Counted from the stretch's first letter, positions 13,452-47,946 are shown. The stretch: 64,000 bases of DNA from an uncultured Gemmatimonadales bacterium (GCA_963730185.1 CAVSQW010000008.1:160001-224000); one strand, 5' to 3'. Numbers and translations: made by a program. The notes: generated by a model not told the origin, from the sequence alone.

Positions 13452-13496
13452 TCCATCCGACGATCGATGGCGTCCGGCGCCTGCTGGCGCGACTAT
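13452..13496 (+). promoter_or_regulatory. Regulon box plus -10 upstream of the DUF892 gene
   Basis: TCCATCCGACGATCGA (13452-13467), 23 bp, GACTAT. Confidence 0.6.
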
Positions 13497-13546
13497 TGGT
13501 CATCGGATCGTCGCTAACCCGGGGGAGTACAGTGAGAGTCCATGCC

Positions 13547-14017
13547 ATGCCTCGTCCCCAGCGCGCGAGCCCGCTTCCCGATCCATTGCTGAATCATTTT
13601 CACCGGATCCATGCGTCGGAAGCGCGACTGGCCCTGGAGCTGGACGTTCTGTTCCGGCGGACCCGCTGGCTCCCCTTGCGGCTGGCGCTGTCGGACCAAC
13701 GGAAGGAAACCAAGCGCCACGTCGATCGGATTGCCGCGCTGCTGCCCGCCGGGAGCGATGGGATCGGGCTGGACCGGGTGGTGGCGCCCGTGGTCGGGCC
13801 CGACTCGGACCGGTGGGCGCCGCTGTCGGCTGCGGCGGTCGTCGCCGACCTCCTTCAGGCCGCCCGCGCGGCCCTGAGTCTCTATGGAGCGGCCCTCGCC
13901 GCCGCCACCGAGCGGGGCCTGGAGCACGTGGTCCGTCTTCTGACCAGCTCGTTGACTGAAGAGACCGAGACGGAGCAGCGGTTGGCCGCCCTGGCGGCCG
14001 AGGTCCCGCCCGAATAG
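13547..14017 (+). CDS. Divergent DUF892/YciE-YciF ferritin-like protein
   Basis: I.A.E..L..L ... ET..HV.RI ... YG ... L..SL.EE..T...L..LA pattern. Confidence 0.6.
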   Translation: MPRPQRASPLPDPLLNHFHRIHASEARLALELDVLFRRTRWLPLRLALSDQRKETKRHVDRIAALLPAGSDGIGLDRVVAPVVGPDSDRWAPLSAAAVVADLLQAARAALSLYGAALAAATERGLEHVVRLLTSSLTEETETEQRLAALAAEVPPE

Positions 14018-14134
14018 GCGAACGGCCCGAACGATCCGTTCCTTTCTTTGCGGAGCGTTCGCTCTCCGCCGTCCATCCGACCTCCCCGGTCGGTGGGCGG
14101 CGGGGCCGTCGCCTTGTCGGTGGTCACCGGACCA

Positions 14135-14179
14135 TCCATCCATCGAGCGATACCTGCTCGCCGATGGCGAGGCTACGGT
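14135..14179 (+). promoter_or_regulatory. Regulon box plus -10 upstream of the Dps remnant
   Basis: TCCATCCATCGAGCGA (14135-14150), 23 bp, TACGGT. Confidence 0.65.
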
Positions 14180-14220
14180 TAGGGTCCTTCACCGGCGATA
14201 CCCAGATCGGAGTCCTGACC

Positions 14221-14458
14221 ATGACCAGCACCTCCATCACCCGAGCCTGAACCAGCGCTTGGTGGATACCCTGACGCTGCGCGATCTCTATCAGATGCAC
14301 CACACCCAGGAGTCATCCTGGAGGAGGCCCGGACCATGGCCCGTGACACCGCGGCCTGCAGCGACCTCGTCGCCAACGACCTGATCGTGCCTGATCTCAC
14401 CCGGCTTGACGAGCGGCCGATCTGGTTCCTGATCGAACTCATCCAGGGGGCCGCATGA
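14221..14458 (+). pseudogene. dps: Dps family remnant, internally deleted and frameshifted
   Basis: One frame reads SLNQRLVDTLTLRDLYQMHH (Dps helix A-like); another reads VILEEARTMARDTAACSDLVANDLIVPDLTRLDERPIWFLIELI (Dps helices C/D-like); GGAG RBS before ATG 14221. Confidence 0.6.
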
Positions 14459-14676
14459 GCGCCAAGAAGAGGCTGGACGCCCAGCCGAGCCGGCACGCGG
14501 ACGGGGCGACGACTCGCGCCGAGACCCCGGAGCTCGAGGGTCGAATCCCGCTGCCCGAGGAGATCACCGGACGCGCTAGCGGAAGCGGCGAGGATCTGGT
14601 GGCCCTGTTCGACGACCAATCCGCCGCCCACGTCGCCGACGGCTTCCGGGGCGGTAGCGGGGATGTTCCCCGCTGA
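14455..14676 (+). CDS. Small acidic hypothetical protein
   Basis: ATGA coupling to the Dps remnant stop; 73 aa. Confidence 0.4.
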   Translation: MSAKKRLDAQPSRHADGATTRAETPELEGRIPLPEEITGRASGSGEDLVALFDDQSAAHVADGFRGGSGDVPR

Positions 14677-14722
14677 CGAAGGGTACACCGCGTCATGAAG
14701 GATCCTTCCTGCCGACGTTACG

Positions 14723-14751
14723 TTGGCTTATATAGCGCTGTCGTATATCCT
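14723..14751 (+). promoter_or_regulatory. Putative sigma70 promoter of the first NarL regulator
   Basis: TTGGCT-17 bp-TATCCT in an AT-rich patch. Confidence 0.45.
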
Positions 14752-14849
14752 CATAGTGAGGGGCGACGAAGGCCGGTGTACGGACATCGACCCGAAACGC
14801 AGCCAGGGTTCCGGGCGCCATCGGGCTCCGCAGACGGCCGAGGGCGAGT

Positions 14850-15530
14850 ATGGCGACACCTCGAGCGAAGTCTCCGGCGGATCGGAATCATCCGGTGTCG
14901 ATCGTGCTGATCGAAGACAACCGGCTGGTCAGGGAGGGGCTGGCTCGGTTGCTCCGTGATCAAGGGGATTTCGAGATCCTCGCCTGCGCGGCCGATCCGG
15001 AAGAGGCCTTGCAGAAAACCCGCGAGGCCAAGCCCCAGGTGGTACTGCTGGACGTCGCCCTCGACGACCGCGAGGGTTTCGACGTCCTGGCCGCGATCCA
15101 CCGACAGGCGCCCGAGGCGAAAGTCATCGTCATGGGGCTCTCTTCCTTCGCCGGGCATGTGGCGGACTTGGTGCGGGCCGGCGCGGCCGGCTTTCTGATG
15201 AAGGACGCGTCGCTTGAGGCGTTCCTGAGCACCGTCCGCGCGGTCGTCGACGGCACCGCCGTGTTGCCGTCCGAGCTGACCGGAACGTTGTTCACCGAAA
15301 TCGCCAACCAAGTCGAGCAACGGGACTCGGCGAGCGCGCTCGACGGGGTGCGGCTCACCCCGCGGGAACGCGAGGTCGTCGACATGATCGGCGCCGGTCT
15401 CAGCAACCAGGAAATCGCCAGCCGCCTTGGCATCGCGATCCACACCGTCAAGAGTCACGTCCACAACGTCCTCGAGAAGCTGTCGCTGCGGAGCCGGCTC
15501 GAAGTGGCTGCCTTCACCCGCCGGACGTAG
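14850..15530 (+). CDS. NarL/LuxR family response regulator
   Basis: REC domain (IEDN, LLD, K) plus LTPREREV...G.SNQEIA..L.IAIHTVKSHVHNVLEKL. Confidence 0.93.
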   Translation: MATPRAKSPADRNHPVSIVLIEDNRLVREGLARLLRDQGDFEILACAADPEEALQKTREAKPQVVLLDVALDDREGFDVLAAIHRQAPEAKVIVMGLSSFAGHVADLVRAGAAGFLMKDASLEAFLSTVRAVVDGTAVLPSELTGTLFTEIANQVEQRDSASALDGVRLTPREREVVDMIGAGLSNQEIASRLGIAIHTVKSHVHNVLEKLSLRSRLEVAAFTRRT

Positions 15531-15569: not shown

Positions 15570-15637
15570 CGGCTCGTCCGAGCGAGGTGGCGGTCGCTCG
15601 GAGGAGCGATTGTCGTCGCCCGGGATCGGGATAGACT
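15570..15637 (+). promoter_or_regulatory. Tandem regulon boxes plus -35/-10 upstream of the DUF3185-like gene
   Basis: CGGCTCGTCCGAGCGA (15570-85) and TCGCTCGGAGGAGCGA (15594-609), then TTGTCG-16 bp-TAGACT. Confidence 0.65.
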
Positions 15638-15696: not shown

Positions 15697-15912
15697 ATGC
15701 GTGCTTTGATCATCGGTGGCGTTGCCGTGGCCTGTATCGGAGCCTTCGTGTTCATTCGCGGCGCGAGCTTCACGTCCCACCGCAATGTTCTTCAAGTTGG
15801 AGACGTCAAGGTCACCGCCACCGAGCAACGGGCGATTCCGGCCTGGGCCGGCGTCCTGGGGTTCGTGGTGGGCGCTGGCATGGTGGTGGTTGGCATCCGG
15901 CGTCGGGCCTGA
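15697..15912 (+). CDS. Small two-TM membrane protein (DUF3185-like)
   Basis: TM-loop(VLQVGDVKVTATEQRAIP)-TM-basic tail; GGGAG RBS. Confidence 0.7.
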   Translation: MRALIIGGVAVACIGAFVFIRGASFTSHRNVLQVGDVKVTATEQRAIPAWAGVLGFVVGAGMVVVGIRRRA

Positions 15913-18440: not shown

Positions 18441-18485
18441 ACTGTACCGGGGATGGGGGGCGTCGCCAATCGATCATTCGGCCGG
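18441..18485 (-). promoter_or_regulatory. Regulon box plus -10 upstream of the PA2779-like gene
   Basis: Minus strand CCGGCCGAATGATCGA (18485-18470), 23 bp, TACAGT. Confidence 0.6.
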
Positions 18486-18549
18486 ATTTCGGTGTAGCTC
18501 GAAAGGACCAGTCCCTGCTGGTCCGGGACCCGCCGGAGCGAGTCGGGAG

Positions 18550-18594
18550 TGGCTCGCATGATCGATGGCGCCGACCCGCGAGCGGCCCTAGGCT
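18550..18594 (+). promoter_or_regulatory. Regulon box plus -10 upstream of the OmpA-family gene
   Basis: TGGCTCGCATGATCGA (18550-65), 23 bp, TAGGCT. Confidence 0.65.
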
Positions 18595-18650: not shown

Positions 18651-19316
18651 ATGCAAAGGATCCAAAGCTGGGTTCGGGCTGGTCTCGTCGTCACCGTCAT
18701 CGGGGCCGTCGGGCTCGCCGGCTGTGCCACCAAGATGCAGACGGGCGCGGTCGTCGGCACCGCCGGGGGCGCCGTTGTCGGCGGTGTGATCGGCAAGGTG
18801 GCGGGGTCCACGGCGAAGGGCGCCATCATCGGGGCCGTGGTGGGCGGCGCCGCCGGCGCCATCATCGGGTCGCAGATGGACAAGCAGGCCCGGGAGCTCG
18901 AGCAGAACATCGAGGGCGCCACGGTGGAGCGCGTCGGCGAAGGTATCCAGGTGACCTTTGCCTCGGGCTTGCTCTACGATTTCGATTCGGATGCCATTCG
19001 TCCCGAGGCTGGCGTCAACCTGCGCGCGCTGGCCGCCAGTCTGGACCGGTATCCCAACACGGATCTGGTGATCATCGGTCACACCGACCAGCTCGGTTCG
19101 TCGGCCTACAACCAGAGCCTCTCGGAACGGCGGGCCACCTCGGCGGCCAGCTACCTCATGGCCCAGGGGGTCAACGGGGGCCGGATCATCACCCGCGGCC
19201 TCGGTGAATCCGAGCCCAAGGCCAGCAACGAGACCGAGGCCGGGCGGCAGGCGAACCGGCGGGTGGAGGTGGCGATCTATGCCAGCAGGGCCTATCGACA
19301 GAGCCTAACGAAGTGA
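18651..19316 (+). CDS. OmpA family lipoprotein with glycine zipper (YiaD-like)
   Basis: Lipobox LAGC, Gly zipper, GHTD, N..LSERRA, NRRVE. Confidence 0.92.
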   Translation: MQRIQSWVRAGLVVTVIGAVGLAGCATKMQTGAVVGTAGGAVVGGVIGKVAGSTAKGAIIGAVVGGAAGAIIGSQMDKQARELEQNIEGATVERVGEGIQVTFASGLLYDFDSDAIRPEAGVNLRALAASLDRYPNTDLVIIGHTDQLGSSAYNQSLSERRATSAASYLMAQGVNGGRIITRGLGESEPKASNETEAGRQANRRVEVAIYASRAYRQSLTK

Positions 19317-19357
19317 CCTGGCGGGGGACCAACCGGCGGGGCCGGGCCGCTCGAAGG

Positions 19358-19402
19358 TCGCTCGAACGAGCGATTGTGGAGCGCCGTCCGGCAGCCGAGC
19401 TT
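19358..19402 (+). promoter_or_regulatory. Regulon box plus -10 upstream of PEP-CTERM gene 1
   Basis: Near-perfect palindrome TCGCTCGAACGAGCGA (19358-73), 23 bp, GAGCTT. Confidence 0.65.
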
Positions 19403-19463: not shown

Positions 19464-19820
19464 ATGAAGATCTCCAATAGCGTGACGTGGCTGATCGCGT
19501 CCGCCGTGATGGCCGGGCCGCTCTCGGCGCAGGGCCGCCCGGGTGAGGCGATCTCCCGGACGACGGACCCCGTCCCGGTGGCGGCCCAGGGTGCCCTCGA
19601 TCGGCCGGCCACGCTCGGTCGAGACCGGCCGGCCCTCCAGTCGGAGCTCGATCGGACGCCCGACCAGCCCGGCTCGGCTGACCGGGAGGGTGAGTTCGAG
19701 CCAGATCCGGGGTGGAGCACGGTCCCCGAGCCCGCCACCATGGTGCTGCTGGCTACGGGCCTCGGCCTTCTCGCCGCCGTCCCGATCGGTCGGCGGCTCC
19801 GGGCCCGCCGGCAGGGCTGA
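19464..19820 (+). CDS. Small PEP-CTERM sorting-domain protein
   Basis: Signal peptide; C-terminal VPEPATMVLLATGL-TM-RRLRARR. Confidence 0.8.
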   Translation: MKISNSVTWLIASAVMAGPLSAQGRPGEAISRTTDPVPVAAQGALDRPATLGRDRPALQSELDRTPDQPGSADREGEFEPDPGWSTVPEPATMVLLATGLGLLAAVPIGRRLRARRQG

Positions 19821-19920
19821 ACGGCGGCCAGCAGGATGACCGGATGCAGGCGGACGCCTGGTCCGGCGAACAGCAGATACGAGCGGGGTTGGCTGACCCG
19901 CCTACGAAGGAGACGGATCA

Positions 19921-20289
19921 ATGTCGGAGAATCGCGGAGTCGCGCAGAGCGAGCCATCCACTGAGGCCGACCAGGGTGGGGTGCCGGACGTCGATGGGCG
20001 CCCGGTGCGGGCGGCGACGATGGGACGCCGGCTGGTCGATGCGGTCGATCGGGGACGGGAAGGGGTGGCGAAGCAGATCGACGGTGCGGCCCTTCGGGCC
20101 GGGCAGGTTTCCGGGGTGGCGGATCGCACCGCCGACCGGCTGGGGTCCGCGGCCAAGTACGTCCGGGACCATGACACGCGCGACCTGATGGATCAGCTGG
20201 TGGGCCTGGTGCGGTCCCATCCCGGCAAATCCCTTCTGGCGGTCGCCGCGCTCGGTTTCGTGACCGGCCGGGTGTTGCGCCGAACCTGA
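19921..20289 (+). CDS. ElaB/YqjD/DUF883-like tail-anchored protein
   Basis: C-terminal VRSHPGKSLLAVAALGFVTGRVLRR. Confidence 0.7.
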   Translation: MSENRGVAQSEPSTEADQGGVPDVDGRPVRAATMGRRLVDAVDRGREGVAKQIDGAALRAGQVSGVADRTADRLGSAAKYVRDHDTRDLMDQLVGLVRSHPGKSLLAVAALGFVTGRVLRRT

Positions 20290-20303
20290 CCGCGGAGTCG
20301 GCG

Positions 20304-20768
20304 ATGCCCCCCGGCGAACGCCCGGTCGCGGAAGTCCTGACCGGCATCGCCGGGAACCTCCAGGCCATCGCGCGGGGGGAAGCTGCGCTGGCCATTGCCC
20401 AGGCCTTCGAGCGGGCCCGGCGGGCATCGCTCGCCCTCGGCTTGCTCGGCGTCGGGGTGGTCTTGGTGGTCGTGGCCTTCGGCGCGGCGCTGGTCGGGGT
20501 CGTGGCCCTGCTCTCCGAGACCATGGCGTTCTGGCAAGCGACGAGCCTGGTCGGCCTGGTCGCCCTCGGCTTCGGCGGAGCGGTCATCATCGGGGGCCTG
20601 GCCCGACTTCGTCGTTCCCGAGAGACGGCCTCCGCCCTCACCACCCTGGAACCGACGGCCGGCCATGGAAACGAACTCCCGCACCATCGAGCAGGCGCTC
20701 TTCGCGGAACGGGAAGCCCTGGGGCACAACGTCGCGGAGCTCGAGCAGCGGACCCAAGCCGCGGTTAG
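20304..20768 (+). CDS. YqjE-like (phage holin superfamily III-like) membrane protein
   Basis: ERPVAEVL..I...LQ.I.RGE..LA followed by two TM segments; position after the DUF883-like gene. Confidence 0.65.
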   Translation: MPPGERPVAEVLTGIAGNLQAIARGEAALAIAQAFERARRASLALGLLGVGVVLVVVAFGAALVGVVALLSETMAFWQATSLVGLVALGFGGAVIIGGLARLRRSRETASALTTLEPTAGHGNELPHHRAGALRGTGSPGAQRRGARAADPSRG

Positions 20769-21111
20769 CTGGCGGGCCCACTTCGACCGATCGCCCGGCC
20801 TGATGCTCGGTCTGGCGTTCGGCGGGGGCGTGTTGGTGGCCCTGCTGGCGCGTGGCAGGGTGCCGCCGCCCGGTCCCGAGGCCGACTCCGGGGCTCCCCG
20901 GCGGAATGGGAAGGCGGCGAGGGCCGCGAGTGGGCTGCTGGGCGCCCTCGTCGCCGCCGGAGCGAGGCGCGCCGTTCGGTATCTGGATGAGCGAGCGGGG
21001 ACCCGGCCGGTCCCGGTCGAGTCACCATCCCCGATCAAGGGCCCGCCTCGCTCGGAAATCGATCGGACGAGCGATACCGCGGGGGACTTCGCCCCGCGAG
21101 CTTTCGACTGA
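20665..21111 (+). CDS. DUF3618/YqjK-like protein
   Basis: IEQ....RE.L..NV.ELE....W..HF...P..MLGLAFGGG. Confidence 0.6.
   Translation: METNSRTIEQALFAEREALGHNVAELEQRTQAAVSWRAHFDRSPGLMLGLAFGGGVLVALLARGRVPPPGPEADSGAPRRNGKAARAASGLLGALVAAGARRAVRYLDERAGTRPVPVESPSPIKGPPRSEIDRTSDTAGDFAPRAFD
21059..21103 (+). promoter_or_regulatory. Regulon box plus -10 upstream of PEP-CTERM gene 2
   Basis: TCGATCGGACGAGCGA (21059-74), 23 bp, GAGCTT. Confidence 0.65.
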
Positions 21112-21169: not shown

Positions 21170-21562
21170 ATGAAGATCTCCTCGATCGCAATCTGGCTCA
21201 TGGCCTCCGCCGCGATCATGCTGCCTCCCGCGGCGCACGCCAGCCAGGCCGCCGGCGTGCGGACGCCGGACCGTGTCGCCGACCGTCCGGCCGACGCGGG
21301 CGCTTTGCCGTCGAGCGTGTTCCTCTCGGTGATCCGGGGCCAGCTGGACCGGCCGGTCACCCCGGGCTGGGAGCAATCATCCAACCAGGCGCCGCCCGAT
21401 GAGGCGACCGCCCGGAGCGGCTCGGATCGCGGGACCGGCGAGCTCGAGGCGGGGGCAGGGTGGACGACCGCGCCAGAGCCGGCGACCATGGTGCTCCTGG
21501 CCACGGGGTTGTTGCTGCTCGCGGCGGTCCCGGTCGCGCGACGGCTCCGGGTCAGGATCTGA
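21170..21562 (+). CDS. Small PEP-CTERM sorting-domain protein (paralog of 19464..19820)
   Basis: MKISS signal peptide; APEPATMVLLATGL-TM-RRLRVR. Confidence 0.8.
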   Translation: MKISSIAIWLMASAAIMLPPAAHASQAAGVRTPDRVADRPADAGALPSSVFLSVIRGQLDRPVTPGWEQSSNQAPPDEATARSGSDRGTGELEAGAGWTTAPEPATMVLLATGLLLLAAVPVARRLRVRI

Positions 21563-21826
21563 TCCGGCCTGGCGATGCGGCACCCCGGTGGGTTCGTCCT
21601 CCCCGGGTCGGATCGGCCGGCGACCGGACCCGGCTCATCGTCCGATCCTGGCCCCCGGCGACGAGCAGGGCGGCCAGTCGGCCCGTCAGGGCCGCCCCGG
21701 TGGACCCGGCGCTCCGCGGACGCCAATCGATCTGAGCGGGGATCCGGATGACCCCTGGGGGTCTCGAGGGCCGGCTGTCGGACGATGACGGCGAGACGGT
21801 ATCCGCCGTCGGGTCTAGACCAGGTG

Positions 21827-21871
21827 GCGCCCGTTGGAGCGATGGTGAATAGCCCGAAAATCATCTACGCT
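21827..21871 (+). promoter_or_regulatory. Regulon box plus -10 upstream of the lipoprotein operon
   Basis: GCGCCCGTTGGAGCGA (21827-42), 23 bp, TACGCT. Confidence 0.55.
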
Positions 21872-21920
21872 TGAGCAGAGGACGATGTCCGGGCTGCTCA
21901 ACCATCCGAAGGATGTTCTC

Positions 21921-22316
21921 GTGCCGACGCTACGACCGCTCAACCGTCCGCATCCCGCCCGCCGCAACGTCGGCGCGCTTGGCCTGGCGACGAAGACCCT
22001 GGCTGCCTTGAGCCTGTTCCTGTTGGCCGCGTGTCCTGGGACCAAGCCGATCAAGGAGTTGCTCGACGACCCTTCCCGTTTCAATGGCGAGACGGTTCGG
22101 ATCGCGGGCGAGGTGACCCAGTCGGTCGGGGCGCTGGGAGTCGGGGTCTATCAGGTCAACGACGGGACCGGCACCCTCACGGTCGTGAGTCAGGCCGGGA
22201 AGGGCACCCCACGCACCGGGGCCCAGATCGGGGTAGAGGGCACCTTCCGATCCGCCTTCACCCTCGGGTCGACGACCGTCGCCGTCCTGATGGAACAGAA
22301 GCGGAAGAGTCCATGA
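21921..22316 (+). CDS. OB-fold lipoprotein
   Basis: Lipobox LAAC; IKELLDDP..F.G..V...G.V ... DGTG.L.V ... V.G OB-fold pattern; start could be ATG 21885. Confidence 0.7.
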   Translation: MPTLRPLNRPHPARRNVGALGLATKTLAALSLFLLAACPGTKPIKELLDDPSRFNGETVRIAGEVTQSVGALGVGVYQVNDGTGTLTVVSQAGKGTPRTGAQIGVEGTFRSAFTLGSTTVAVLMEQKRKSP

Positions 22317-22705
22317 ACAGGCGTCGACTGTTACTCGCGGGGCTCGCGACGACCGCCCTCCTCGCCTGCGGCAAAGGCGGGTCACAATCGGCCGCCGACA
22401 GCACTAGGAGTCTCGGGCTGGCCCAGCCCGACAGTACGTACCCTCTCAACGACCGGCCCGCCCCCGCGACGCCAGCCCGATCCCCCGCGACGCCAGCTCC
22501 ATCCCCCGCGACGCCAGCCCGTCCCACCTCGTCCCAGCCGAACTCGGGCTCAGGCTCGATGCTGGCCACGGGTGTCGGGGCCGTGGCCGGTAGTGCCGCC
22601 GGGGCCGTGGTCGCGGCGGTGACCGCGAATCGCGATGTGGTGATCGCGGTCGGCACGCCGATGGTCGTCACCCTGAACGGGCCGCTGACGGTCCAGGCCC
22701 GATAG
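22313..22705 (+). CDS. Pro/Ala-rich lipoprotein with glycine-zipper-like C terminus
   Basis: Lipobox LLAC; PATPA repeats; ATGA coupling to the upstream gene. Confidence 0.6.
   Translation: MNRRRLLLAGLATTALLACGKGGSQSAADSTRSLGLAQPDSTYPLNDRPAPATPARSPATPAPSPATPARPTSSQPNSGSGSMLATGVGAVAGSAAGAVVAAVTANRDVVIAVGTPMVVTLNGPLTVQAR
22461..22521 (+). repeat. 21-bp tandem repeat x3 (PATPARS/PATPAPS linker)
   Basis: CCCCCGCGACGCCAGC recurs at 21-bp period. Confidence 0.8.
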
Positions 22706-22716
22706 GAAGGCACTCC

Positions 22717-32174: not shown

Positions 32175-32187
32175 CCCGGCGCGCCCC

Positions 32188-35679: not shown

Positions 35680-35931
35680 GCCGCGATGGCCCGAACGCCG
35701 TTGGCGGCGGGGTCGATGGGAGGTGGGAGAGCCGGCGTCGAACGTCGAATCATTGGGCGCATCCTCAAGAGGGCGAGCCGGAGGCGTCCATCGCAACCAC
35801 CGCGTCTAACTCCAGGTCGGTAGGAACTGCTCGATTTTGCAATAGGTTCTTCGACGCTCTGAGCATATATTCCAGGAGTATGTACCGCAAGGCTCGATCC
35901 TAGGGTCACGCGGTCGAGTGAAGGCCTCCCG

Positions 35932-36162: not shown

Positions 36163-36197
36163 GCCCCTCCGAGGCGCCGGGCCCGAGGGCGAATCCA

Positions 36198-36458: not shown

Positions 36459-39400
36459 TTGCGGTTGGGTCTGCTGTCGCGCCTGTTCACGCGGTCGTCC
36501 CACCCTCGCGAGGAAATTGCCGGCCCGATTCGCGGTGAGCTCCTGGGTGCCGAGCATCTCGGCGACCGGGCCCGGGCCCTGGCGAGCACGGAGCGCCTGG
36601 CGCCGCCCGGCGCCTCCCGGCGACGGATCCCGCTGCTCCGACGGCTCGACCAGACCCGCCGCATCCTGGACCGGGCGTACGCCCGGCTGACCGCCAGTGC
36701 CGCGCTCGGCGGTGACGTCAGCCCCGCCGGGGACTGGCTGCTCGACAACTTCCACGTCATCGAAGATCACATCCGCGAGGTGCGCGCCAGCCTTCCGCCG
36801 GGCTACTACCGGGAGTTGCCGGAGCTGAGCCGGGGGCCGCTGGCGGGGTATCCCCGCGTCTACGAGCTGGCGATTACCCTGATCTCCCACACCGAGGGAC
36901 GAATCGACCTCGAGAACGTGACCCGGTTCGTGGGCGAGTTCCAGCGGGTCGCGCCGTTATCGATGGGTGAGCTTTGGGCGGTGCCCGCGATGTTGCGCCT
37001 CGGCTTGATCGAGAGCGTTCGGCGGATGGCGCTCAGGGTGGTGGGGCGGTTGGACGAAGCGGGACTCGCCCAGCTCTGGGCGGCCCGCTTTCGGACCGGC
37101 CGGGCGGCCGACGGGGGTTCTCCCGGGCCGGTCGTCGCCGCGTTCGGCCGGGACCACCCGCCCCTCACCCCGACCTTCGTGAGCCGGCTGCTCCAGCTGC
37201 TCCATGCCGACTCGGGCGACGTGCCCGGCCTCGACTGGCTCGAACAGTGGTTGGCTCTGGAGGGGCTCACCGCCGAGAGCGCGGCGGCCCAGGCGATTCA
37301 GCGCCTGGCGCTCACCCAGCAGATGATGACCAACAGCATCACCAGTCTCCGGGCGGTGGCCCGCATGGACTGGCGCACCTTCGTGGAGGGCCAAAGCCGG
37401 ACCGAGGCCGCCCTCCGGACCGACCCGTCCGGATCCTATGCCCGGATGACGTTTGCGACCCGGGACTGGTATCGACACGTCGTCGAGCGGATCGCCAAGC
37501 GAAGCGGATCGGCCGAGGACGCCGTCGCCCGGGCCGCGGTCGATCTCGCCCGGGCCGCCTTCGCCGCCGCCCCCGATAGCCGTCGGGCCCACGTCGGCTA
37601 CTACCTGGTAGACGAGGGTCTGGCGACGCTGGAAGCCTCGGTCGGGTATCGGTCGACGCCGGGCGAGGCCATTGCCCGGTTGGTCCGCCGTCATCCGAAC
37701 GGGTTGTTCGTGGGCGGCGTGGTGGCCGGGACCGGGCTGGCCGTCGTCGCCCTGTTCGGCCTGGCGGGCGTCGGTGCCCGTCCAGCGGCCCTGCTGGTCG
37801 TCGTCTTCGCGCTCCTCCCGGCCAACGACATTGCGGTCCGGGTGATGAACCAGCTGATCACGGCGATCCTGCCGCCCCGGATGCTGCCGAAGCTCGACCT
37901 GCATGAAGCCGGGGTGCCACCGGAGCTTCGGACCGCCGTCGTCATTCCCACCCTGCTCCCCGACCTCGATGCGGTCCAGGAGGCATTGGAAACGCTCGAA
38001 GTCCGCTTCCTCGCCAACCACGAAGCGCACCTCCACTTCGCGCTCCTGAGCGATTTCACCGACTCGGCGACCGAGACCCGGGCCGACGACGCGGCGATCG
38101 TGGCCGCGGCCCGGGACGGCGTAAGGCCCTGAACGCCCGCTACGCGCCCGAGACCGACGACGCCTTCTACCTGTTCCATCGCCCCCGGCGGTGGAACCCC
38201 AGGGAGGGGGTGTGGATGGGCTGGGAGCGGAAGCGAGGAAAGCTGGCGGAGTTCAACCGCTTCGTCCGCGGGGCCGCCCAGGAGGCATTCTCGGTCGTGG
38301 TCGGCAACGTCGCGGCCCTTCGCGGCCTCCGGTACGTCATCACCCTCGACGCCGACACGGTGCTGCCGCCCGATGCCGCCCCCGACCTGATCGGCGCGAT
38401 CGCCCATCCGCTCAACCGGGCCGAATTCGATCCGGCCCGGGGTCGGGTGGTCCGCGGCTACGGCATTCTGCAGCCCCGGGTCGGGGTCTCGCTGCCGAGC
38501 GCCTCGCGGTCGCGGTTTGCCGCGATCTTTTCGGGACGCCCGGGGGTGGATCCCTACACGACCGCCGTGTCGGACGTGTACCAGGATCTGTACGGCGAGG
38601 GGAGCTTCACCGGCAAAGGGATCTACGACCTCGACGCGTTCGAGGAGGCGACCCACGGTCGCTTCCCGGAGAATCGGCTCCTCTCCCACGATCTGATCGA
38701 AGGCAACTACGCCCGCACCGGACTGGTCACCGACGTCAACCTCTACGACGACTATCCGACCAGCTATGGCACCTATACCAGCCGAAGGCATCGCTGGATC
38801 CGGGGCGATTGGCAGCTCCTCCAGTGGCTGACGCCGACCGTACCGGGGCCGGACGGTCCGGAGCCGAATCGGCTGTCGGTGCTCTCTCGCTGGAAGATCC
38901 TGGACAATCTTCGCCGGAGCACGGTCGAGCTGGCCCAGCTCGCCCTGTTGGTCGCGGGCTGGACACTGCTCCCCGGCTCCCCGCTCCGGTGGACCCTCCT
39001 TGGCCTCGGCGCCATCGCCGCCCCGTGGGTCGTGGCTCAGCTGATCGCGGCGGTCCGGGTGCCGCTCCGCCAGTCGTGGCGAGCCTACCTCGGAGCGGTC
39101 GGGCTCGACGCGGTTCGGAGCGCGGCCCAGCTGGGGCTGGGCGTCGTCTTCCTCCCCCATCAGGCCTGGGTCTCGGCCGACGCGATCATCCGCACGCTCT
39201 GGCGGCTGGCCGTTTCCCGACGACACCTCCTGGAGTGGCAGAGCGCCTCGACGGCAGAGCGGGTTACGGCCTCCCGTCCCCGGGTCGGCTGGCGCTCCCT
39301 GGGACCGTCGCTGGCGATGGTGGCCGGCGTCGGCGCGCTGGTCGCGGTCCGGGGGGCCCGGTCCGCCGACCCCAAGCTCATGTGGGCGTTGGCGGCCTGC

Positions 39401-42400
39401 GCCGGCCCTCTGCTCGTGGCCTGGCTGTCGTCGCCCTTCGTGGCTGCCGCGCTCAGCGCGCCGGCGGTCCGGCCTGACCGCCGCCTGCCCGCGGCCGGCC
39501 GCCGCCAGATCCTCCGGTACGGGCTCCTTCATTGGCGCTTCTTCGAGCGGTTCGTCGGTCCGGAGACCAACTGGCTCGCACCCGACAACTTTCAGGAAGA
39601 CCCCGCGCCGGTCACGGCCATGCGGACCTCGCCCACCAACATCGGCCTGCAGCTGTTGGCGACGGTCAGTGCGCACGACCTCGGCTTCCTGACCCTGGAG
39701 GGCCTGATCGTCCGGCTGGAGCGGATCTTCGGTTCGCTCGAGCGGATGGCGCGGTTCCGAGGCCACTTCTACAACTGGTACGATCTCGCCGATCTCTCGG
39801 TGCTCCAGCCGGCGTACGTGTCGACGGTGGACAGCGGGAATCTCGCCGGTCACTTGATTGCCCTGCGGCAGGCCTGTCTGACCATACCGGACCAGCCGGC
39901 CGGACCGGGTCGAACGGTCCGGGCAGTGGCCGCCGGGCTCGGCCTCGCCGACACCCGTCTCGACGCACTCGCCCCGTCGGCGTCGACCCGGCCGGTGGCG
40001 GTCCGCCGTGCGCTGGCCGCGGCGGGCGCCGAGCTGGGCCGGGCGCGCCGGGCCTTGCGGTCGGCCGGGGATGACGCGGAGGCCCGGGCGCTGCTGGCCG
40101 GCCTGGAGGCCCCGCTCAGAGCGGTGCTGGCGCTGATCGGCGACGCCCGCCTCTCGGTCGAGGAAGCGGAGCCGGCCCGAGAATGGATCGCCTGGAGCCT
40201 CGAGATCGTGGCGGAGGCGGTGCACTCGGGAGAAGCCCCCCCGAGCTCGCTGCGGGACCGGTCAGCGGGGTCGGAGGCCGCGCGGAATCTGGTCGCCCGC
40301 CTCGAGGCGATCGCCCGCCGCGCCTACCGGTACGCGATGGAGATGGAATTTGGATTCCTGCTCGATCCGGAACGCAAGCTCCTCGCGATCGGCTACCAAC
40401 TGGCCAGCCACTCGCTCGACCCGTCGTCCTACGATCTGCTCGCGTCCGAGGCCCGGCTGGCGAGCTTCGTCGCGATCGCGAAGAACGACGTGCCGGTCGA
40501 CCACTGGTTCCGGCTCGGCCGGACGCTCACCTATGCGGCGGGCGGCCCGGCGATGGTGTCGTGGAGCGGAAGCATGTTCGAGTACCTGATGCCCGCGCTG
40601 GTGATGCAGTCCTTCCCGTTTACGCTGCTGGATCAGACCCATCGGGGGGCGGTCCGCCGCCAGATCGCCTACGGCGCGGCCAGGGGCGTGCCGTGGGGCA
40701 TGAGCGAGAGCGCCTACAACGTGCGCGATCGGCACGGCACCTACCAGTACCGGGCCTTCGGTGTTCCCGATCTCGCGCTCAAGCGAGGCCTCGACCGCGA
40801 CCTGGTGGTCGCTCCATACGCTTCGGCGCTGGCGGCGCTGGTCGACCCGGAAAAGGCCCTCCGTAACCTGACCGCGATCGAGCGGCTCTCCACCCTGGGG
40901 CCGTTCGGGTTTCACGACGCCCTCGACTACACCCGCCCCGAACCGGAGTCGGATCGTGCCGTGGTGCGTAACTACATGGCGCATCACATCGGGATGAGCC
41001 TGGTGGCATTCACCAACGTGCTGACCGCGCAGGTCTGGCAACGCCGGTTTCACGCGGATCCCTTGGTCCGGTCGGTGGAGCTCCTTCTCCACGAGCGAAT
41101 TCCCCGGCGGTTGATCCTCCGCCCGGCCCGGGCATCGACGATCGGGGAGGGCCGCGCCGAGATGCCCTTCGACGGCCCCGCGGTGCGGGAGCTGGAGACG
41201 CCCGATTGTGCCGAGCCCCAGGTGGCCCTCCTCGGGCGCCCGCCGTTCACCCTGATGGTGAGTCATTGCGGAGGTGGGTACAGTCGGTACCAGCACCTTG
41301 CCATCGCGCGATGGCGCTCCGACGGAACCCGGGATGACACCGGGCAGTTCTGCTACGTCAAGGATCTGAGCCGGGGCCGGGTCTGGTCGGCGAGCCATCA
41401 GCCGGTCTGCGCGCCCGCCGACTGGTACCGGGCCACCCTGGCGGCCGACCGGGTGACCTTTCATCGCGCCGACGGTGATATCGAAACCCGGACCGAGATC
41501 GCCGTGGTGCCCGACGAGTCGGCCGAGGTGCGGCGGGTGACTCTCACGAACAACGGGACCCGGGCCCGCCAGCTCGAGCTGACCAGCTACGGTGAGATCG
41601 TGCTCGCGCCGCCGGACACGGACCGGGCCCACCCGGCCTTCAGCAACTTGTTCGTCGAGACCGAGTGGCACGCCTGGTGTACGGCGATCACCGCGATCCG
41701 GCGACCCCGGTCGCCGGACGATCCCGTGGTCTGGTGCGTTCACGTCGTCGATACCGGGAAGGGCAGGGTCGGGCCGGTCTCGTTCGAGACGGACCGGGGT
41801 CGGTTTCAGGGGCGGGGCCGGACGGCCCGCGATCCCGTAGCCTTGGAGGTCGACGGCGACCTGGCCGGCGCGACCGGCGCCGTATTGGACCCGATCTTCG
41901 CCCTCCGAACCCGGGTCGGCCTCGGTCCGGGCCAATCGGCGGCCGTGACCTATACTACGCTGATCGCCACCAGCCGCGAGCGGGCCTTCGAGCTGGCCGG
42001 CCGGTACCACGATCCCCACGCGGCGCAGCGGGCGCTCGACCTGGCGGCGACGTCGAGTCAGGTGGAGCTCCGCGAGTTGGGCCTCACCCCGGCCGACGCG
42101 ACGGTGTTCCAGGAGCTGGCCGGCCCGCTCATCTTCGGCAACCCGATGGCGCGGGCGCCCGAAGCCGAGCTCCGGCTGAACCGAGGCTCGCAACCCCAGC
42201 TCTGGGCCCACGGGATCTCGGGCGACTGGCCGATCGTGCTCGCCACCATCAGCGATAGTCAAGGCCTCCCGACCCTTCGCCAGGTCCTCGCCGCCCACCG
42301 GTACTGGCGTCGTCGCGGCATGGTGGTCGACCTGGTCGTGCTCAACGCGCACCCCACGACCTACCAGGCCGAGCTCGAGGCCGAGATCACCGCCACGGTC

Positions 42401-45163
42401 AACGCCCTGGACCAAGCCGATCCCTCGGAGCAGGCCGGCGGCGTGTTCGTGCGCCGCCGCGAGCTGTTCACCCCGGCCGATCTGCTGATGCTCCGGGCCA
42501 CCGCCCGGCTGCTGGTTCCCTGCGACGGCCGGCCGCTGAGGCGGGTCGCCCAGTCGCTCCAGGGACCCAGCGGCGAGCCGATCGACGACGGCGCGGGGCT
42601 CCTGACCCGGCTCCGTCGCTCCGAGCGGAGCAGCGCTCCCGGCCTCGACCCGGCCCGGCGGCTCGGCCTCGGCGGGTTGGCCACCCCGGGGGACCCCTTC
42701 GGCCCGACCTCCGTCGCCGACGCCCCGCTGTCCGGCGAAGTCCCCGCGCCGCCCCTCGACAACGGGTTCGGTGGGCTGACGCCGCAGGGCGATTACGAGA
42801 TCCAGGTCGCGGGCGACCGGGTGCCCCCGGCACCGTGGGTGAACGTGATCGCGAATCCGGCCGGCGGCTTCGTCGTCAGCGAGCGCGGGGCGGGGTTCAC
42901 CTGGGCCAGAAACAGCTACTTCTTCCGGCTCACGCCCTGGCACAACGACCCGGTCGGCGATCCGCCCACCGAGGTGATCTACCTCCGCGACGAGGCGAGC
43001 GGCGAGCTCTGGTGCCCCACCCCCGCCCCGGTCCGCACCACCGAGCCGTACACCGTCCGGCACGCCCCGGGCAAGTCCAGCTTCCGGCACGACCACGCCG
43101 GGATCGTCACCGATCTCCGGCTGGGCCTGGTGGCGGATCAGGCGATCAAGTGCGCGGTGCTCGGAATCACCAACGGGACGGCCGTCCCCCGGCGGCTCTC
43201 GATGACGGCGTACGTGGAATGGACGCTGGGGATCAGCCGGGAGCACACCCGGCATCAGGTCGTCACCGCCTTCGAACCGGACGCCGGAGCGATCTTCGCC
43301 CGGAACTCGTTCGACCCCCTGTACGCCGACTGGACGGCATTTCACGCCATCAGCGAACCGGTTACGAGTCACACCGGCGACCGGCGTGAGTTCCTGGGGC
43401 GGAACGGCGCCTTGAGTCTTCCGGCGGCGTTGGCCGGACTGCCGGCATCCGACCGGACCTTGAGTGGGACGACCGGGGCGGGGCTCGATCCGTGCGCCGC
43501 GCTCCAATGCGAGATCGAGCTCGCTCCGGGCGAGCGCCGCGACATCGTCGTGTTGCTCGGCGCGATGCCCGGGCTGTCCGAGGCCAGACGAGCGGTGGCC
43601 GACTGGATCGACCCGGGTCGCGCCGCCGGAGCGATCGCCGCCGGCTCGGATGCCTGGGATGCCCGGCTGTCCCGGATCGCCGTGCGCACGCCGGAGCCCT
43701 TGTTCGACGCGATGCTGAATCGCTGGACGCTGTACCAGGCCCTGGGGTGCCGGATGTGGGCCCGCTCGGCGCTGTACCAGAGCAGCGGCGCCTACGGCTT
43801 TCGCGATCAGCTCCAAGACGCCCTGGCCCTGGTGTATGCCGAGCCCGGACTGGCGCGAGCGCAGATCGTTCGATCGGCGGCTCGCCAGTTTCTCGAGGGC
43901 GACGTCCAGCACTGGTGGCATCCGGAGACCGGACGAGGGGTCCGGACCCGATTCTCGGACGACCTGGCCTGGCTCCCCTACGTGGTCGACCACTATGTCC
44001 GGGTTACCGGCGATCGGTCGGTACTCGACGAGTCCGTTCCCTTCCTCCGGATGCGGGAGCTGGGGGCGGATCAGCACGAGATCTACGACCTTCCCGAGGT
44101 CACGGCGGAGCCAGCCACGGTGCACGAGCACTGTCTCCGGGCCCTCCGGCGAGCCTCGACGGCCGGAGCCCATGGGCTCCCGCTGATCGGGGGCGGCGAC
44201 TGGAACGACGGCATGAACCGGGTCGGGATCGAGGGGCGGGGAGAGAGCGTGTGGCTGGCCTGGTTCCTGATCGCGACGCTCCGGGGGTACGCGGAGCAGG
44301 CCGACGCCCGGTCCGATACCGCCGCCGCCGAGGGCTGTCGAGCCCGGGCCGACCGGTACCTCGCCGCGGTCGAGGCCCATGGCTGGGACGGCGCCTGGTA
44401 TCGCCGGGCCTACTTCGACGACGGCACGCCTTTGGGCTCCCGCGAGAGCGACGAATGCCGGATCGACTCCATCGCCCAGAGCTGGAGCGTAATCTCCGGC
44501 GCCGGCGAGCCGAGTCGGCAGGCCCAGGCGATGCGCTCGCTCGAGGAACACCTGGTTCGGCCCGACGCCAGGCTGATTCAGCTGCTCGACCCGCCGTTCG
44601 ACCGAACGCCGCGCGATCCGGGGTACATCAAGGGCTATCTCCCCGGGGTCCGGGAGAACGGCGCCCAGTACACCCACGCCGCGCTCTGGGTGGTGCTGGC
44701 GACGGCGCTACGGGGAGACGGGGATCGCGCCTTCGAGCTCTTTCAGATGCTCAATCCGCTGACCCACACCCGCACGCCCGAGGAGGTCGCGACCTACCGG
44801 GTCGAGCCCTACGTGGTCGCCGCCGACGTCTATACCGCACCCGGCCAGCTGGGCCGGGGCGGGTGGACCTGGTATACCGGGTCGGCGAGCTGGATGTACC
44901 GGGTTGGGTTGGAGAACCTGCTCGGGTTCACCAAGCGAGGTGATACGCTCTGGTTCGCGCCCGCGGTTCCCGAGCACTGGTCCGAATTCTCCGTGCTCTA
45001 CCGGCATGGCCGGAGCACCTACGCCATCGTGGTTCGTGACCCGGCCCGGGTCGCGCCGGGGACGGCCACGGTCGTCGTCGACGGGCGGCGGCTGGACGGA
45101 TCGTCGATTCCGCTGGTCGACGATGGCGCGCGGCACGAGGTCCTGGTCGTGGGGATCGGGTGA
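36459..45163 (+). CDS. ndvB: Cyclic beta-1,2-glucan synthase (GT84 plus GH94), one frameshift near 38125
   Basis: WLLDNF, WMGWERKRGKL, VITLDADT, LLSHDLIEG, R.HRWIRGDW, DLLASEARL, GFRDQLQD, GDWNDG, ENG.QYTH, WYTGSA.W across ORFs 36459..38132 and 38210..45163. Confidence 0.93.
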
Positions 45164-45216
45164 CGATGATGGGCCCGGCGAGTCCAGCGTGATCTCCGCC
45201 GGCTGCCGTGACCGGG

Positions 45217-46302
45217 CTAGTCCCCGAGGAGCACCGCCAACGGGCGCAGATGGTCGACATGATCGGCGATGACCTTGAGCATCACGGTCATCGGGACGGC
45301 CAGGATGACGCCCGCCACACCCCAGACCCACCCCCAAAAGAGCAGGCAAACGAAGAGCGCCACCGTGTTGAGCGGGAGCTTCCGACCCAACACCGCCGGG
45401 GTCACCAGGTTCCCGGCCACCAGATGAATCAGCAGGAACCCGCCCACCACGACCAGCGGCCGCTCGATCCCATCGAAGGTCACGAGCGTCGCGGCTCCGA
45501 CCAGCAAGGCCGAGACCAGCGCCCCCACGTAGGGGACAAAGTTCAACCCGCCGGCGAGTGTTCCCCACAACCCGGCGTTGGGAACCGCTGCGACTCGAAG
45601 GAGCACCCAGGTGGCACCGCCCACCCCGATGCTGATCAGCGTCGTGAAGGCAAGATACCGGGAGGTCTGGCGCTCGATCTCCTTCAGGGCGTGTTCCATC
45701 CGGGTCTGGTGTCGGATCTCCGCCGGCAGGCTGACGAGCCGACGCCGCAATCGCTGACCGGTCGCGAGGAGGAAATAGGTCAGGAAGGCCACGCCGAGCG
45801 TCGCCCCGACCGCGGAGATGGTGCTGATGCTGACCCGTTGCACGAGGCCGGGCGTTTGCATCTCGACCCGCTGGGTGCCGCCGTCACGGGCCCCACTCGC
45901 CGCTTGCTCGACCTTGAGCGCCGACTCTTGAATCGCGTGGAGGGGGCGGATCACCTGCCGTACCTTCGCTTCGATTTGCGCCAGGAGGGCAGGGCTCCGC
46001 CGAACCCAGCCGCCGGCCGGCCCCGCCAAGAACGCGGTCCCAACGGCCAGCAGGGTGATGGTTCCGAACACCAACAGTCCGGCCCCGATCGACTCCGGGA
46101 TCCGGTGTTCCCGGAGCCACCGAACCAGGGGGGCGAGGAGCAGACTCAGGAGGATCGAGACGGCGATCGGTACCAGGAGCGCGCTCGCCAGGCGGAGGGC
46201 GGCCACCACGAGGATGGTAAAGACGGCAATCAGCAGCCCCTGCCCACGGTGGCCGCCGAGGGTCGAGCCGGCTGTCGGGCGGGGCGTCGGATCGCTCTTC
46301 AT
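45217..46302 (-). CDS. AI-2E family transporter
   Basis: LNFVPYVG, WGWVWGVAG.ILAVP motifs; multiple TM segments. Confidence 0.9.
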   Translation of the reverse strand: MKSDPTPRPTAGSTLGGHRGQGLLIAVFTILVVAALRLASALLVPIAVSILLSLLLAPLVRWLREHRIPESIGAGLLVFGTITLLAVGTAFLAGPAGGWVRRSPALLAQIEAKVRQVIRPLHAIQESALKVEQAASGARDGGTQRVEMQTPGLVQRVSISTISAVGATLGVAFLTYFLLATGQRLRRRLVSLPAEIRHQTRMEHALKEIERQTSRYLAFTTLISIGVGGATWVLLRVAAVPNAGLWGTLAGGLNFVPYVGALVSALLVGAATLVTFDGIERPLVVVGGFLLIHLVAGNLVTPAVLGRKLPLNTVALFVCLLFWGWVWGVAGVILAVPMTVMLKVIADHVDHLRPLAVLLGD

Positions 46303-46325
46303 GGTGCCAACCCGGGTGGGCCGGA

Positions 46326-46535
46326 CTACTCCTCGGCGCCGGGACCCTCGAACTCGCGGACCTCCCGCTCGATTGCCTCCCGGGCGCGACCATAGCGCTG
46401 CTGAAGAAGGCCCACCAGCTGGTCGCGCTGTCCCGCGATGACGGTCAGGTCGTCGTCGGTGAGCCTGCCCCACTGCTCGGCCGCTCGGCCGCGGATCTGT
46501 TTCCAGTCGCCTTTGAGCTGGTTCGCGTTCATCAC
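46326..46535 (-). CDS. CsbD family stress protein
   Basis: G.WKQ..G...EQWG.LTDDDL..I.G.R.QL.G.LQ.RYG. Confidence 0.92.
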   Translation of the reverse strand: MMNANQLKGDWKQIRGRAAEQWGRLTDDDLTVIAGQRDQLVGLLQQRYGRAREAIEREVREFEGPGAEE

Positions 46536-46647
46536 GTTCCACCCTTATGGTGATCGGCCACCGGTTACCCGCAACGGTACCGGGAATGATCAGGGCCGGC
46601 TGCCGAACCGGTTGGTGCGCCTGAGTCGGTCAAACGAGGTGCGGTGG

Positions 46648-47844
46648 TCAGCGGGCCTGGCGGCGACGCGCCGCTGGTTCGAGCACCCGGCGCCCTTCGT
46701 CCCGTGGGTAGGTGCCGACCAAGGGCTTGTCGGCGGGGATGCCGAGGTGCCGGCCGAGGCGACGAAGCGCCCGGGCGATGCCGGCGCCGAAGGAGGAGGG
46801 GACGGCTCCGCCGGTCGGGTCGAATGAGGGCTGGGCCGTCTCTGGTTCCAGGCGATCGACGTACACACGATTGCCGCCCCCGGCCTTGGCCGCATAGCAC
46901 GCCCGATCGGAGGCCTGCAGCACGGCGGCCATCGTCCCGCGGTTGGCCGTCACCGGGATGATGCCGATGCTGGCGGTGACCGCAAACTGCCGCCCGGCCC
47001 ATCCCAAGCGGTGCCGCTCGACCGCGGCTCGAATCCGGTTGGCAATCCGGTCCGCTTCGCCCAGGGCACAATGCTCCAACAGGAGGCCGAACTCGTCGCC
47101 GCCGAGCCGGGCCAGCGTGTCCCGCTGCCGGAGGTGGCCCGCGAGAATGGGGCCGAGGCTCCGCAGCAGGGCATCGCCGGCATCGTGGCCCCCGGCATCG
47201 TTGACTTCCTTGAAGCGGTCGAGGTCCAGGTAGAGGAGGGCGTGGTGTGAGGACATGCCGGCCGGGGTCATCACCAACCGGGTCAGCCGCCGCTCGAACT
47301 CCCGCCGGTTGATGAGCCCCGTCAGGCTATCGTGCGTTGCGTCGAACGCCAACTGGCGACCCACCAGCCGATTCGCACTCTCGTCCCGGATGACGAGCAC
47401 CACGCCGATGATCGCCCCGGACTCGTCCCGAATCGGTGCGGTCGAGTCGCCGATCGAGATTTCTTGGCCATCCCGGCGGCACAGCACCACGCCGTCCTCC
47501 AGGTCCATGGCCCGCCCGCTCTCGACGCATCGCACCGCGACGTTGGCGATTCGCCGACGCGTGGTTTCGGAGACCAGCGGCAGGACGATTTCGAGGGCCC
47601 TCCCCATGGCCTCGCCGGTCGTCCAGCCGGTCAGCTGTTCGCCGGCGGCGTTCATATACGTGATGCGACCGGCGGCATCCGTCGTGACCACCGCATCGCC
47701 GATCGACGCCAACGTCGCCCGGACCTGCGCCAGGGCCCAGTCGGCGATCGGCGCCCCGGCCAGGCCGGGGACCGCGACCCGGATGCCCCGCGTGGCCGGT
47801 GCGGACGGCCTCGGCTTGTGCGGCGGGTTGGGTGTCAGGCGCAT
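46648..47844 (-). CDS. PAS-GGDEF diguanylate cyclase
   Basis: PAS (SIGDAVVTTD, MN.A.EQLTGW), HDSLTGL.NR, DLDRFK.VND, GGDEF. Confidence 0.9.
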   Translation of the reverse strand: MRLTPNPPHKPRPSAPATRGIRVAVPGLAGAPIADWALAQVRATLASIGDAVVTTDAAGRITYMNAAGEQLTGWTTGEAMGRALEIVLPLVSETTRRRIANVAVRCVESGRAMDLEDGVVLCRRDGQEISIGDSTAPIRDESGAIIGVVLVIRDESANRLVGRQLAFDATHDSLTGLINRREFERRLTRLVMTPAGMSSHHALLYLDLDRFKEVNDAGGHDAGDALLRSLGPILAGHLRQRDTLARLGGDEFGLLLEHCALGEADRIANRIRAAVERHRLGWAGRQFAVTASIGIIPVTANRGTMAAVLQASDRACYAAKAGGGNRVYVDRLEPETAQPSFDPTGGAVPSSFGAGIARALRRLGRHLGIPADKPLVGTYPRDEGRRVLEPAARRRQAR

Positions 47845-47901
47845 TGCACTCGTCGTTCAGGGCCAGGGCGGCGCGGGTCAATCAGAGTCTTCCACCTGTT
47901 G

Positions 47902-47946
47902 ATCATAGTCCGGCCGAGTCAAGGATCACATCGCTCGTTGGGATGG
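47902..47946 (-). promoter_or_regulatory. Regulon box plus -10 upstream of the diguanylate cyclase
   Basis: Minus strand CCATCCCAACGAGCGA (47946-47931), 23 bp, TATGAT. Confidence 0.7.

Follow-up and report, generated by a model that had tools for sequence, protein, structure and literature searches.

What acts on a 16-bp quasi-palindromic box that recurs upstream of 12 promoters is the question raised by a 64-kb stretch of DNA (64,000 nucleotides, hereafter the window) from an uncultured Gemmatimonadales bacterium, whose genome stands at 5.27 Mb in 17 contigs and is 82% complete. The boxes occupy an island at 13.4-47.9 kb of the window that also encodes two NarL-family regulators, and it had been proposed that a single activator, most likely these local paralogs, drives a general-stress regulon through them. 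The single-activator part of that proposal is supported by gene linkage, de novo rediscovery of the motif and co-occurrence across genomes: a clade of orphan NarL-family activators, two of them encoded in the window, is likely to use the box as its operator and would work by the mechanism set out below. Genes were called with a hexamer model built for this analysis and named by Pfam and NCBIfam.

All 12 boxes are present at the coordinates and on the strands given for them in the original prediction, and each is followed after 23 bp (22 at the box beginning at 15594) by its listed -10 hexamer. The downstream half, GA(G/T)CGA followed by T, is found in 12 of 12, while the upstream half is looser than was claimed, with an exact TCGCTC in only two. 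The element is a 6-4-6 inverted repeat, the 16-bp two-half-site format of NarL/FixJ-family operators, with a degenerate dyad in which 3.4-4.0 of the six outer pairs are complementary (mean 4.0 for the window sites). On the assumption that the -10 element starts at -12, it spans -51 to -36 with its center at -43.5. The statement that every box points to a gene start 70-125 bp away agrees with the 114 bp found at the 34413 box and does not hold at 14135, where the ATG at 14221 opens only nine codons before a series of short broken frames, nor at 21827, where the first ATG is 43 bp away and an in-frame GTG at 21921 is 79 bp away. In leave-one-out scans of both strands of the 5.27 Mb only 2-19 positions scored as high as each held-out site or higher, the site itself and its 11 training sites being counted. 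With a matrix from 119 non-redundant sites in other genomes, all 12 window boxes reach at least 18 bits, only eight such sites occur in the remaining 5.21 Mb, and no 13th window site reaches 15 bits; those 119 sites had themselves been selected with a matrix to which the window sites contributed, and the fully independent check of the motif is the de novo search of other genomes described below. By this matrix scan the regulon in this assembly is almost confined to the island. The best boxes elsewhere are C11:+53813 and C14:-147882 in G000, of which the latter, a perfect 6-4-6 repeat, is not followed by any clear gene. A peak of 10 non-coding matches at 23-bp spacing, against 0-4 at other spacings, comes largely from sites in the window itself and cannot count as independent evidence.

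The two regulators belong to a monophyletic clade (101 sequences plus two neighbors, support 0.997), and it is to genes of this clade that the box is linked. In the 230 nt downstream of the gene, the window-trained matrix finds a site of at least 15 bits for 43 of 95 clade genes, some of them from closely related genomes, for none of 35 canonical NarL-family genes and for one of 285 shuffles. Expectation maximization (EM) run blind on 83 non-redundant regions downstream of clade genes in other genomes returned the same motif in 56 of the 83, with consensus TCATCC-N4-GAGCGA-TTG and a log-likelihood ratio of 348 versus 99 and 102 in two shuffled controls. Among 300 genomes of the phylum, a tally in which the unpublished genomes G056 and G096 are counted and to which their use is limited, the clade is present in 63 (E up to 1e-38, nine candidates being scored per genome), and at least three pattern matches occur in 20 of those 63 versus five of the 237 without it. 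Inside the genus, the eight genomes with the clade have 8, 20, 1, 12, 15, 14, 5 and 2 matches (mean 9.6) and the 13 without it 0-3, except for one with 6 (mean 1.2). Related genomes are not independent and P values would overstate the association, so that these co-occurrence counts are descriptive. In G189 the same genes occur in another order, again behind boxes, and clade genes likewise have boxes next to them in records with the titles Krumholzibacteriia, Balneolales, Ignavibacteriae and Kryptoniota.

At many promoters the conserved sequence extends beyond the box. Among the 119 sites, which were chosen on box and -10 alone, a half-site model exceeds 2 bits in forward orientation at -76 in 31%, in reverse at -66 in 36% and in forward at -62 in 39%, with a background of 0-8% per offset between -121 and -78; of 29 held-out sites from nine further loci, 11, 12 and 13 respectively have these half-sites, where the background averages 1.3-1.5 and reaches at most 5. 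A second 6-4-6 repeat, centered at -68.5, is made up of the -76 and -66 halves. The -62 half shares 2 bp with the -66 half and stands in 6-5-6 direct repeat to the left half-site of the main box. Seven of the 12 window sites have the -62 half. In G084 (C26:50141-50214; L115 10171-10186) one box serves two divergent promoters, with a -35 T and a -10 element on both sides.

Regulator 1 (14895-15530, plus strand) and regulator 2 (34972-35679, minus strand) are 55% identical and have nearly the same recognition helix, whose T, K and H are conserved in 99, 98 and 98 of 99 clade members, respectively. Both score above cut-off for PF00072 and PF00196, an N-terminal receiver joined to a C-terminal GerE/LuxR helix-turn-helix (HTH) being the arrangement of the NarL/FixJ family; their top Foldseek matches are LiaR and NarL, the best sequence match in the PDB is 1a04 (E 1.4e-34), and their closest relatives are in records titled Gemmatimonadales. 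They are not of the LuxR quorum-sensor type, the N-terminal domain being a receiver with no autoinducer-binding family among the Pfam matches, nor are they NarL or NarP proper, since they reach 157 and 146 bits where the NCBIfam NarL cut-off is 250. The full set of five active-site residues of a canonical two-component regulator (DD, D, T, K) is also lacking: the acidic pair, the Asp and the Lys are kept, and Gly stands at the conserved Thr position with Leu at T+1. That position is G in 59, D in 39 and Q in one of 99 close relatives, never T or S, whereas 36 of 39 more distant relatives have T or S; Thr or Ser occurs in five of 143 top cluster representatives and is missing in 138. With the Thr missing, both regulators are pseudo-receivers by the definition in the part of PMC12632262 drawn on here, where the absence of even one among the five active-site residues suffices.

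Whether such a protein is switched by phosphorylation is the point on which the best-surviving alternative turns. It has the same proteins binding the box, controlled by ordinary phosphorylation from a kinase encoded elsewhere, for instance a PAS kinase linked to KaiC and KaiB. The four retained residues are in its favor, as is the statement in the same part of PMC12632262 that substitutions at T need not abolish phosphorylation. In two relatives the clade gene comes after kaiC, kaiB, a HisKA_3 PAS kinase and a canonical regulator (L046 6038-10672; L014 6258-10669), and in a third, L037, kaiC is directly behind a box (11010-12617). Set against this are the loss of Thr or Ser throughout the close relatives and in nearly all cluster representatives, the failure to find kaiC or kaiB in this 82% complete genome, and the kinases themselves: none is adjacent to either regulator, and the three HisKA_3-like kinases that a single query detected in the genome each adjoin a canonical regulator. 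Control by a distant kinase is thus possible and rather doubtful. Within the clade, degeneration has in places gone further. A subclade of 13 paralogs without the Asp and/or Lys (support 0.997) is usually encoded directly behind an intact gene with a box between, and there the box has an asymmetric, TG-type left half (L004 5606; L001 10758; L085, L091, L092, L093) that is probably one inherited site. No degenerate partner was found in the present genome, which has two copies of the intact type.

Several observations weigh against these clade proteins as the binders. G084, 100% complete by markers and in 30 contigs, has nine scattered matches to the broad pattern, several of them convincing, and searches by protein, HTH and profile found no clade gene in it; G147 (94%, 370 contigs) has six matches, one upstream of a ferritin-like gene, and a clade gene was not found there either. 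Conversely, 19 of the 63 clade-bearing genomes lack any strict-pattern match, and 45 of the 95 clade genes have no downstream site of even 12 bits. In the window itself only four sites pass the cut-off for the -66 half and three for the -76 half, and there is no box in the 260 nt upstream of either regulator gene, the GH94 glucan gene or CsbD. Regulator and boxes also share one island, and their linkage could reflect co-transfer. Regulator 1 does follow the 14135 box at a distance of about 750 bp, with short broken open reading frames (ORFs) between them, and feedback upon it from that box is possible. A supposed 13th, autoregulatory box between regulator 2 and the gene for a 76-amino-acid (76-aa) XRE protein was rejected, as it scores 3.0 bits and is not conserved in seven related intergenic regions.

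It is from such observations that a different, unlinked activator could be argued for, with the NarL-clade genes as mere passengers or targets of the same island. The boxes of G084 and G147, without a detectable clade gene, would then be explained, and the clade is partly a target in any case, since 14 of the 85 first genes near boxes are clade members. Yet both of these genomes are draft assemblies, box counts follow the presence of the clade inside one genus, the box stays beside the clade gene in records from other phyla, and a tetrahelical HTH protein is reported, in the portion of PMC4797271 used here, to have the same spacers, 4 and 5. An unlinked activator is accordingly improbable, and the clade proteins remain the predicted binders. 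Box-like sequences do occur near other NarL-family genes. Two members of the genus that lack the clade have in common a box-like promoter, situated about 3 kb away from a more distant NarL-family gene (G125 C6:72201; G196 C50:20674), and in a Solibacteraceae record (L078) a canonical NarL-family gene at 4090-4740 has a perfect 6-4-6 palindrome and TTG some 17 nt behind it, which may represent a parallel circuit in Acidobacteriota. A box-like site common to three Streptomyces loci is upstream of a topoisomerase-type gene and was treated as unrelated.

A further reading, for which the original prediction named an alternative-sigma promoter, is that an alternative sigma factor uses the downstream half plus T as its -35 element. 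In its favor are 31 Sigma70_r2 matches in the genome, a T that varies less at the boxes (12 of 12; 0.85 of de novo sites) than at ordinary promoters (0.40), and four of the 12 hexamers or their -35 neighbors that are weak matches. The spacing, though, is that of the genome at large. In 1866 upstream regions outside the window TTG occurs 23 bp before TANNNT 136 times, against 43 at 22 bp, 69 at 24 bp and 11-22 at each of 17-21 and 25-29 bp, and of 1293 TANNNT hexamers outside the window 40% have T at -35 versus about 16% elsewhere. The constant T and the 23 bp are therefore an ordinary -35 start and a 17-bp spacer, and as the position mirroring the T, -52, is A in only 17 of the 119 sites, the T is not part of the dyad. 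The conserved bases are upstream of the -35, in a dyad with further repeats to -76, and no sigma gene is present in the window. That a strict sigma70 scan of 33500-36500 gave no site is as expected for weak promoters. With the ordinary sigma70 geometry matched in this way, an alternative sigma factor is very unlikely. Least credible of all is binding by one of the island's XRE/Cro-type proteins, for although the 76-aa protein (35932-36162, plus strand) is encoded divergently from regulator 2 and lies near a clade gene in seven of 77 loci, it is found in three of 25 box-rich genomes, 20 of which have the NarL clade, and is not found in G189, so failing the co-occurrence test and being largely refuted as binder, and the 284-aa one is found in one of five box-rich genomes tested.

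With a predicted NarL-family dimer on the box, the class II activator geometry likened earlier to that of lux boxes stands as far as a dyad near -43 beside a weak -35 is concerned; NarL at yeaR is a closer precedent than the lux case. According to the part of PMC10853779 drawn on here, the NarL 7-2-7 site of yeaR is at -43.5, activation occurs through the C-terminal domain of the RNA polymerase alpha subunit (alpha-CTD) placed in the minor groove between the monomers, without sigma4 contact, and NarL is not a canonical class II activator there. At the two central positions of the box, A or T is found in 0.75 and 0.86 of de novo sites, and such an AT-rich center would suit a similar alpha-CTD minor-groove contact. 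By analogy, a dimer on the 6-4-6 repeat at -43.5, directly upstream of a weak sigma70 -35, would recruit housekeeping RNA polymerase, probably through alpha-CTD. At many promoters more protomers would be accommodated on the 6-5-6 direct repeat with the half-site at -62 and on the 6-4-6 repeat at -68.5, which may make the switch cooperative. With receivers that have no Thr and have Leu at T+1, activity would probably be set by the amount of protein, the choice of partner or a ligand more than by phosphorylation. The presumptive output is a set of small membrane, secreted and ferritin-like proteins, together here with a sugar-phosphate and phosphoketolase block, whose gene content suggests stress or stationary phase.

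Parts of this circuit have counterparts in known systems. The likeness to NarL at yeaR extends to a receiver joined to a tetrahelical HTH, a 16-bp dyad at -43.5 just upstream of the -35 and tandem sites at some promoters, so far as the available part of PMC10853779 goes; the window box differs in sharing only 3.5 of 14 positions and the regulators in their recognition helix residues, in having no sensor beside the gene and no Thr, and in targets that are not nitrate genes. Bacillus subtilis ComA, in the same portion of PMC4797271, binds its hexamers as an inverted repeat with an optimal spacer of 4 or a direct repeat with an optimal spacer of 5, and both arrangements recur here. The match to ComA-type promoter architecture is one of geometry only: the hexamer sequence differs (4.2 of 12 positions shared), the direct repeat here shares its second element with the promoter-proximal inverted repeat, and no peptide-sensing kinase is seen in the window. 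BldM and BldM-WhiI of Streptomyces, as given in part in PMC4125116, are likewise orphan atypical NarL-family regulators with a similar 16-bp box, the 8.7 of 14 positions shared being somewhat inflated by the high GC of both; the TG-type left half upstream of degenerate paralogs resembles the published site, and many relatives carry a second paralog without the Asp and/or Lys, as WhiI has a degenerate pocket. The present genome differs in having no degenerate partner, and heterodimers of the clade are hypothetical. None of the 37 Streptomyces paralogs in the tree, among which WhiI itself was not identified, falls within the clade, and BldM-WhiI is thus a working analogy rather than a matter of membership. 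L194, taken to be BldM on the basis of a helix motif, reaches 86 bits with the clade profile where the window proteins reach 301-326, and is outside the clade. L162, presumably OrrA, though that is a guess, is the closest Streptomyces paralog by profile at 176 bits and also falls outside, so that OrrA was set aside as a model. In pairwise alignment of the helix, on which the comparison with DosR/DevR was made, the recognition helix differs from that of DosR. In one missing active-site residue and a bulky residue at T+1 the regulators resemble the pseudo-receiver response regulators in the portion of PMC12632262 used here; they differ in that a whole clade has Gly or Asp at the Thr position and comes with a predicted regulon, and no description of such a clade was found in the literature searches made.

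The island encodes DUF892/ferritin-like and small membrane proteins, a PA2779/PA2778-like pair, an OmpA lipoprotein, two weak PEP-CTERM-like proteins, holin-X, GlsB/YeaQ, an rpiA-pgm-zwf-HAD-HPF-like-ackA series, xfp, a Na+/H+ exchanger, DUF5670, the GH94 glucan gene, AI-2E, CsbD and PAS-GGDEF besides the two regulators; of the XRE genes, that for the 76-aa protein is within it and that for the 284-aa protein is at its left edge. It is marked by neither a tRNA gene nor a GC shift. The leftmost promoter on the plus strand (13452-13496; box 13452-13467, -35 start, -10 GACTAT; 21.8 bits), with a direct-repeat half-site at 13441-13446, precedes the DUF892/ferritin-like gene. The next (14135-14179, plus, TACGGT, 26.9 bits) is upstream of the short broken ORFs at 14221-14910 that lead into regulator 1. 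One stretch of these plus-strand frames looks Dps-like by eye; a Dps origin is not supported, with a tblastn E of 0.58 and no Pfam match, and an intact ferritin-like homolog is at C8:598022-598570. The box with the 22-bp spacing (15594-15637, plus, TAGACT) is upstream of a conserved 71-aa membrane protein gene (15697-15912) that is often the first target in relatives.

A divergent pair follows. On the minus strand, 18441-18510 comprises -10 TACAGT, the box at 18470-18485 and a distal inverted repeat at 18495-18510, its targets being the genes for a PA2779-like protein and a PA2778-like C39 peptidase (18388-15920, minus), arranged in the same way in G189; on the plus strand, box and TAGGCT at 18550-18594 are upstream of a Gly-zipper OmpA lipoprotein gene (18651-19316). 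Farther on, the plus-strand promoters at 19358-19402 (direct-repeat half-site 19347-19352) and 21059-21103 (half-site 21048-21053) have the same GAGCTT hexamer. Behind the first are a weak PEP-CTERM-like gene, a 122-aa ORF and a holin-X family gene (19464-20768, plus), and behind the second another weak PEP-CTERM-like gene (21170-21562). These short PEP-CTERM-like genes (19464-19820 and 21170-21562) are paralogous and their promoters similar, probably through local duplication, which would mean that the two sites are not independent.

A five-half-site operator at 21802-21871 (plus; box 21827-21842, TACGCT) heads a same-strand run at 21885-29471 of two secreted or lipoprotein genes, GlsB/YeaQ, rpiA, pgm, zwf, HAD, an HPF-like gene and ackA, which from its spacing may be an operon. 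It is followed by 29469-29524 (plus, 31.9 bits), with a direct-repeat half-site, the box at 29480-29495 and TAACCT, before a 53-aa ORF, the xfp phosphoketolase gene and a Na+/H+ exchanger gene (29618-33483, plus). On the minus strand, 34384-34428 (box 34413-34428, TACCAT) is upstream of lipoprotein and DUF5670 genes (34299-33586), its distal repeat being 2 bp out of register by eye. The best-scoring site (34875-34934, minus, 33.8 bits), with auxiliary half-sites, the box at 34904-34919 and TAATTT, is directly behind regulator 2 and upstream of the gene for a conserved small protein (34827-34510). At the right end of the island a second five-half-site operator (47902-47971, minus; box 47931-47946, TATGAT) precedes PAS-GGDEF and then CsbD and an AI-2E transporter gene (47844-45217, minus), probably cotranscribed. 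The GH94/glucoamylase (cyclic glucan synthase-like) gene at 36459-45163 (plus), which has no box, is split into frames of 557 and 2315 aa where relatives (L124, L209, L210) apparently have a single frame, and to the right of the island (55540-64000) is a chemotaxis-like signaling block of PAS kinase, single receivers and CheB/CheR-kinase, also without a box.

CsbD, YflT, DUF892 and GlsB/YeaQ are members of SigB or RpoS stress regulons elsewhere. Among the 85 first genes called near the 119 sites, by automatic calls of which some are wrong, in addition to the clade regulators seven match the small protein gene at 34510-34827 and five that at 15697-15912, with further matches to DUF6627-like, DUF5670, CsbD, DUF892, GlsB, OmpA and the GGDEF gene; Gly-zipper, DUF4397, PRC-barrel, beta-barrel, YflT-domain, ice-binding-like and PAS-kinase genes are also associated with boxes in relatives. 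This gene content suggests a stress or stationary-phase program. The sugar-phosphate block was not seen in 77 relative loci and so looks local.

Gemmatimonadota is a common soil phylum with few cultured members, and in a literature search that covered few subscription papers no described transcription-factor regulon or motif was found for the phylum or for this gene set. The type of circuit is known, being that of a NarL-, ComA- or BldM-type regulon; what appears to be undescribed is the motif, the layout of five half-sites, and the clade of pseudo-receivers together with its degenerate partner. A motif, a candidate regulator and a target list together can be tested without culturing, and several families of unknown function are brought into one probable stress program. 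For the open question of how pseudo-receivers are switched, as posed in the available part of PMC12632262, the clade offers a large natural set of them with a predicted operator. More tentatively, Gemmatimonadota and some neighboring phyla may run a stress or dormancy program by a phosphorylation-independent NarL-family pseudo-receiver acting on housekeeping polymerase, without an alternative sigma factor; the protein would assemble as an oligomer across an operator of five half-sites, and a degenerate partner that it induces in many species might heterodimerize with it and re-tune or shut off the response.

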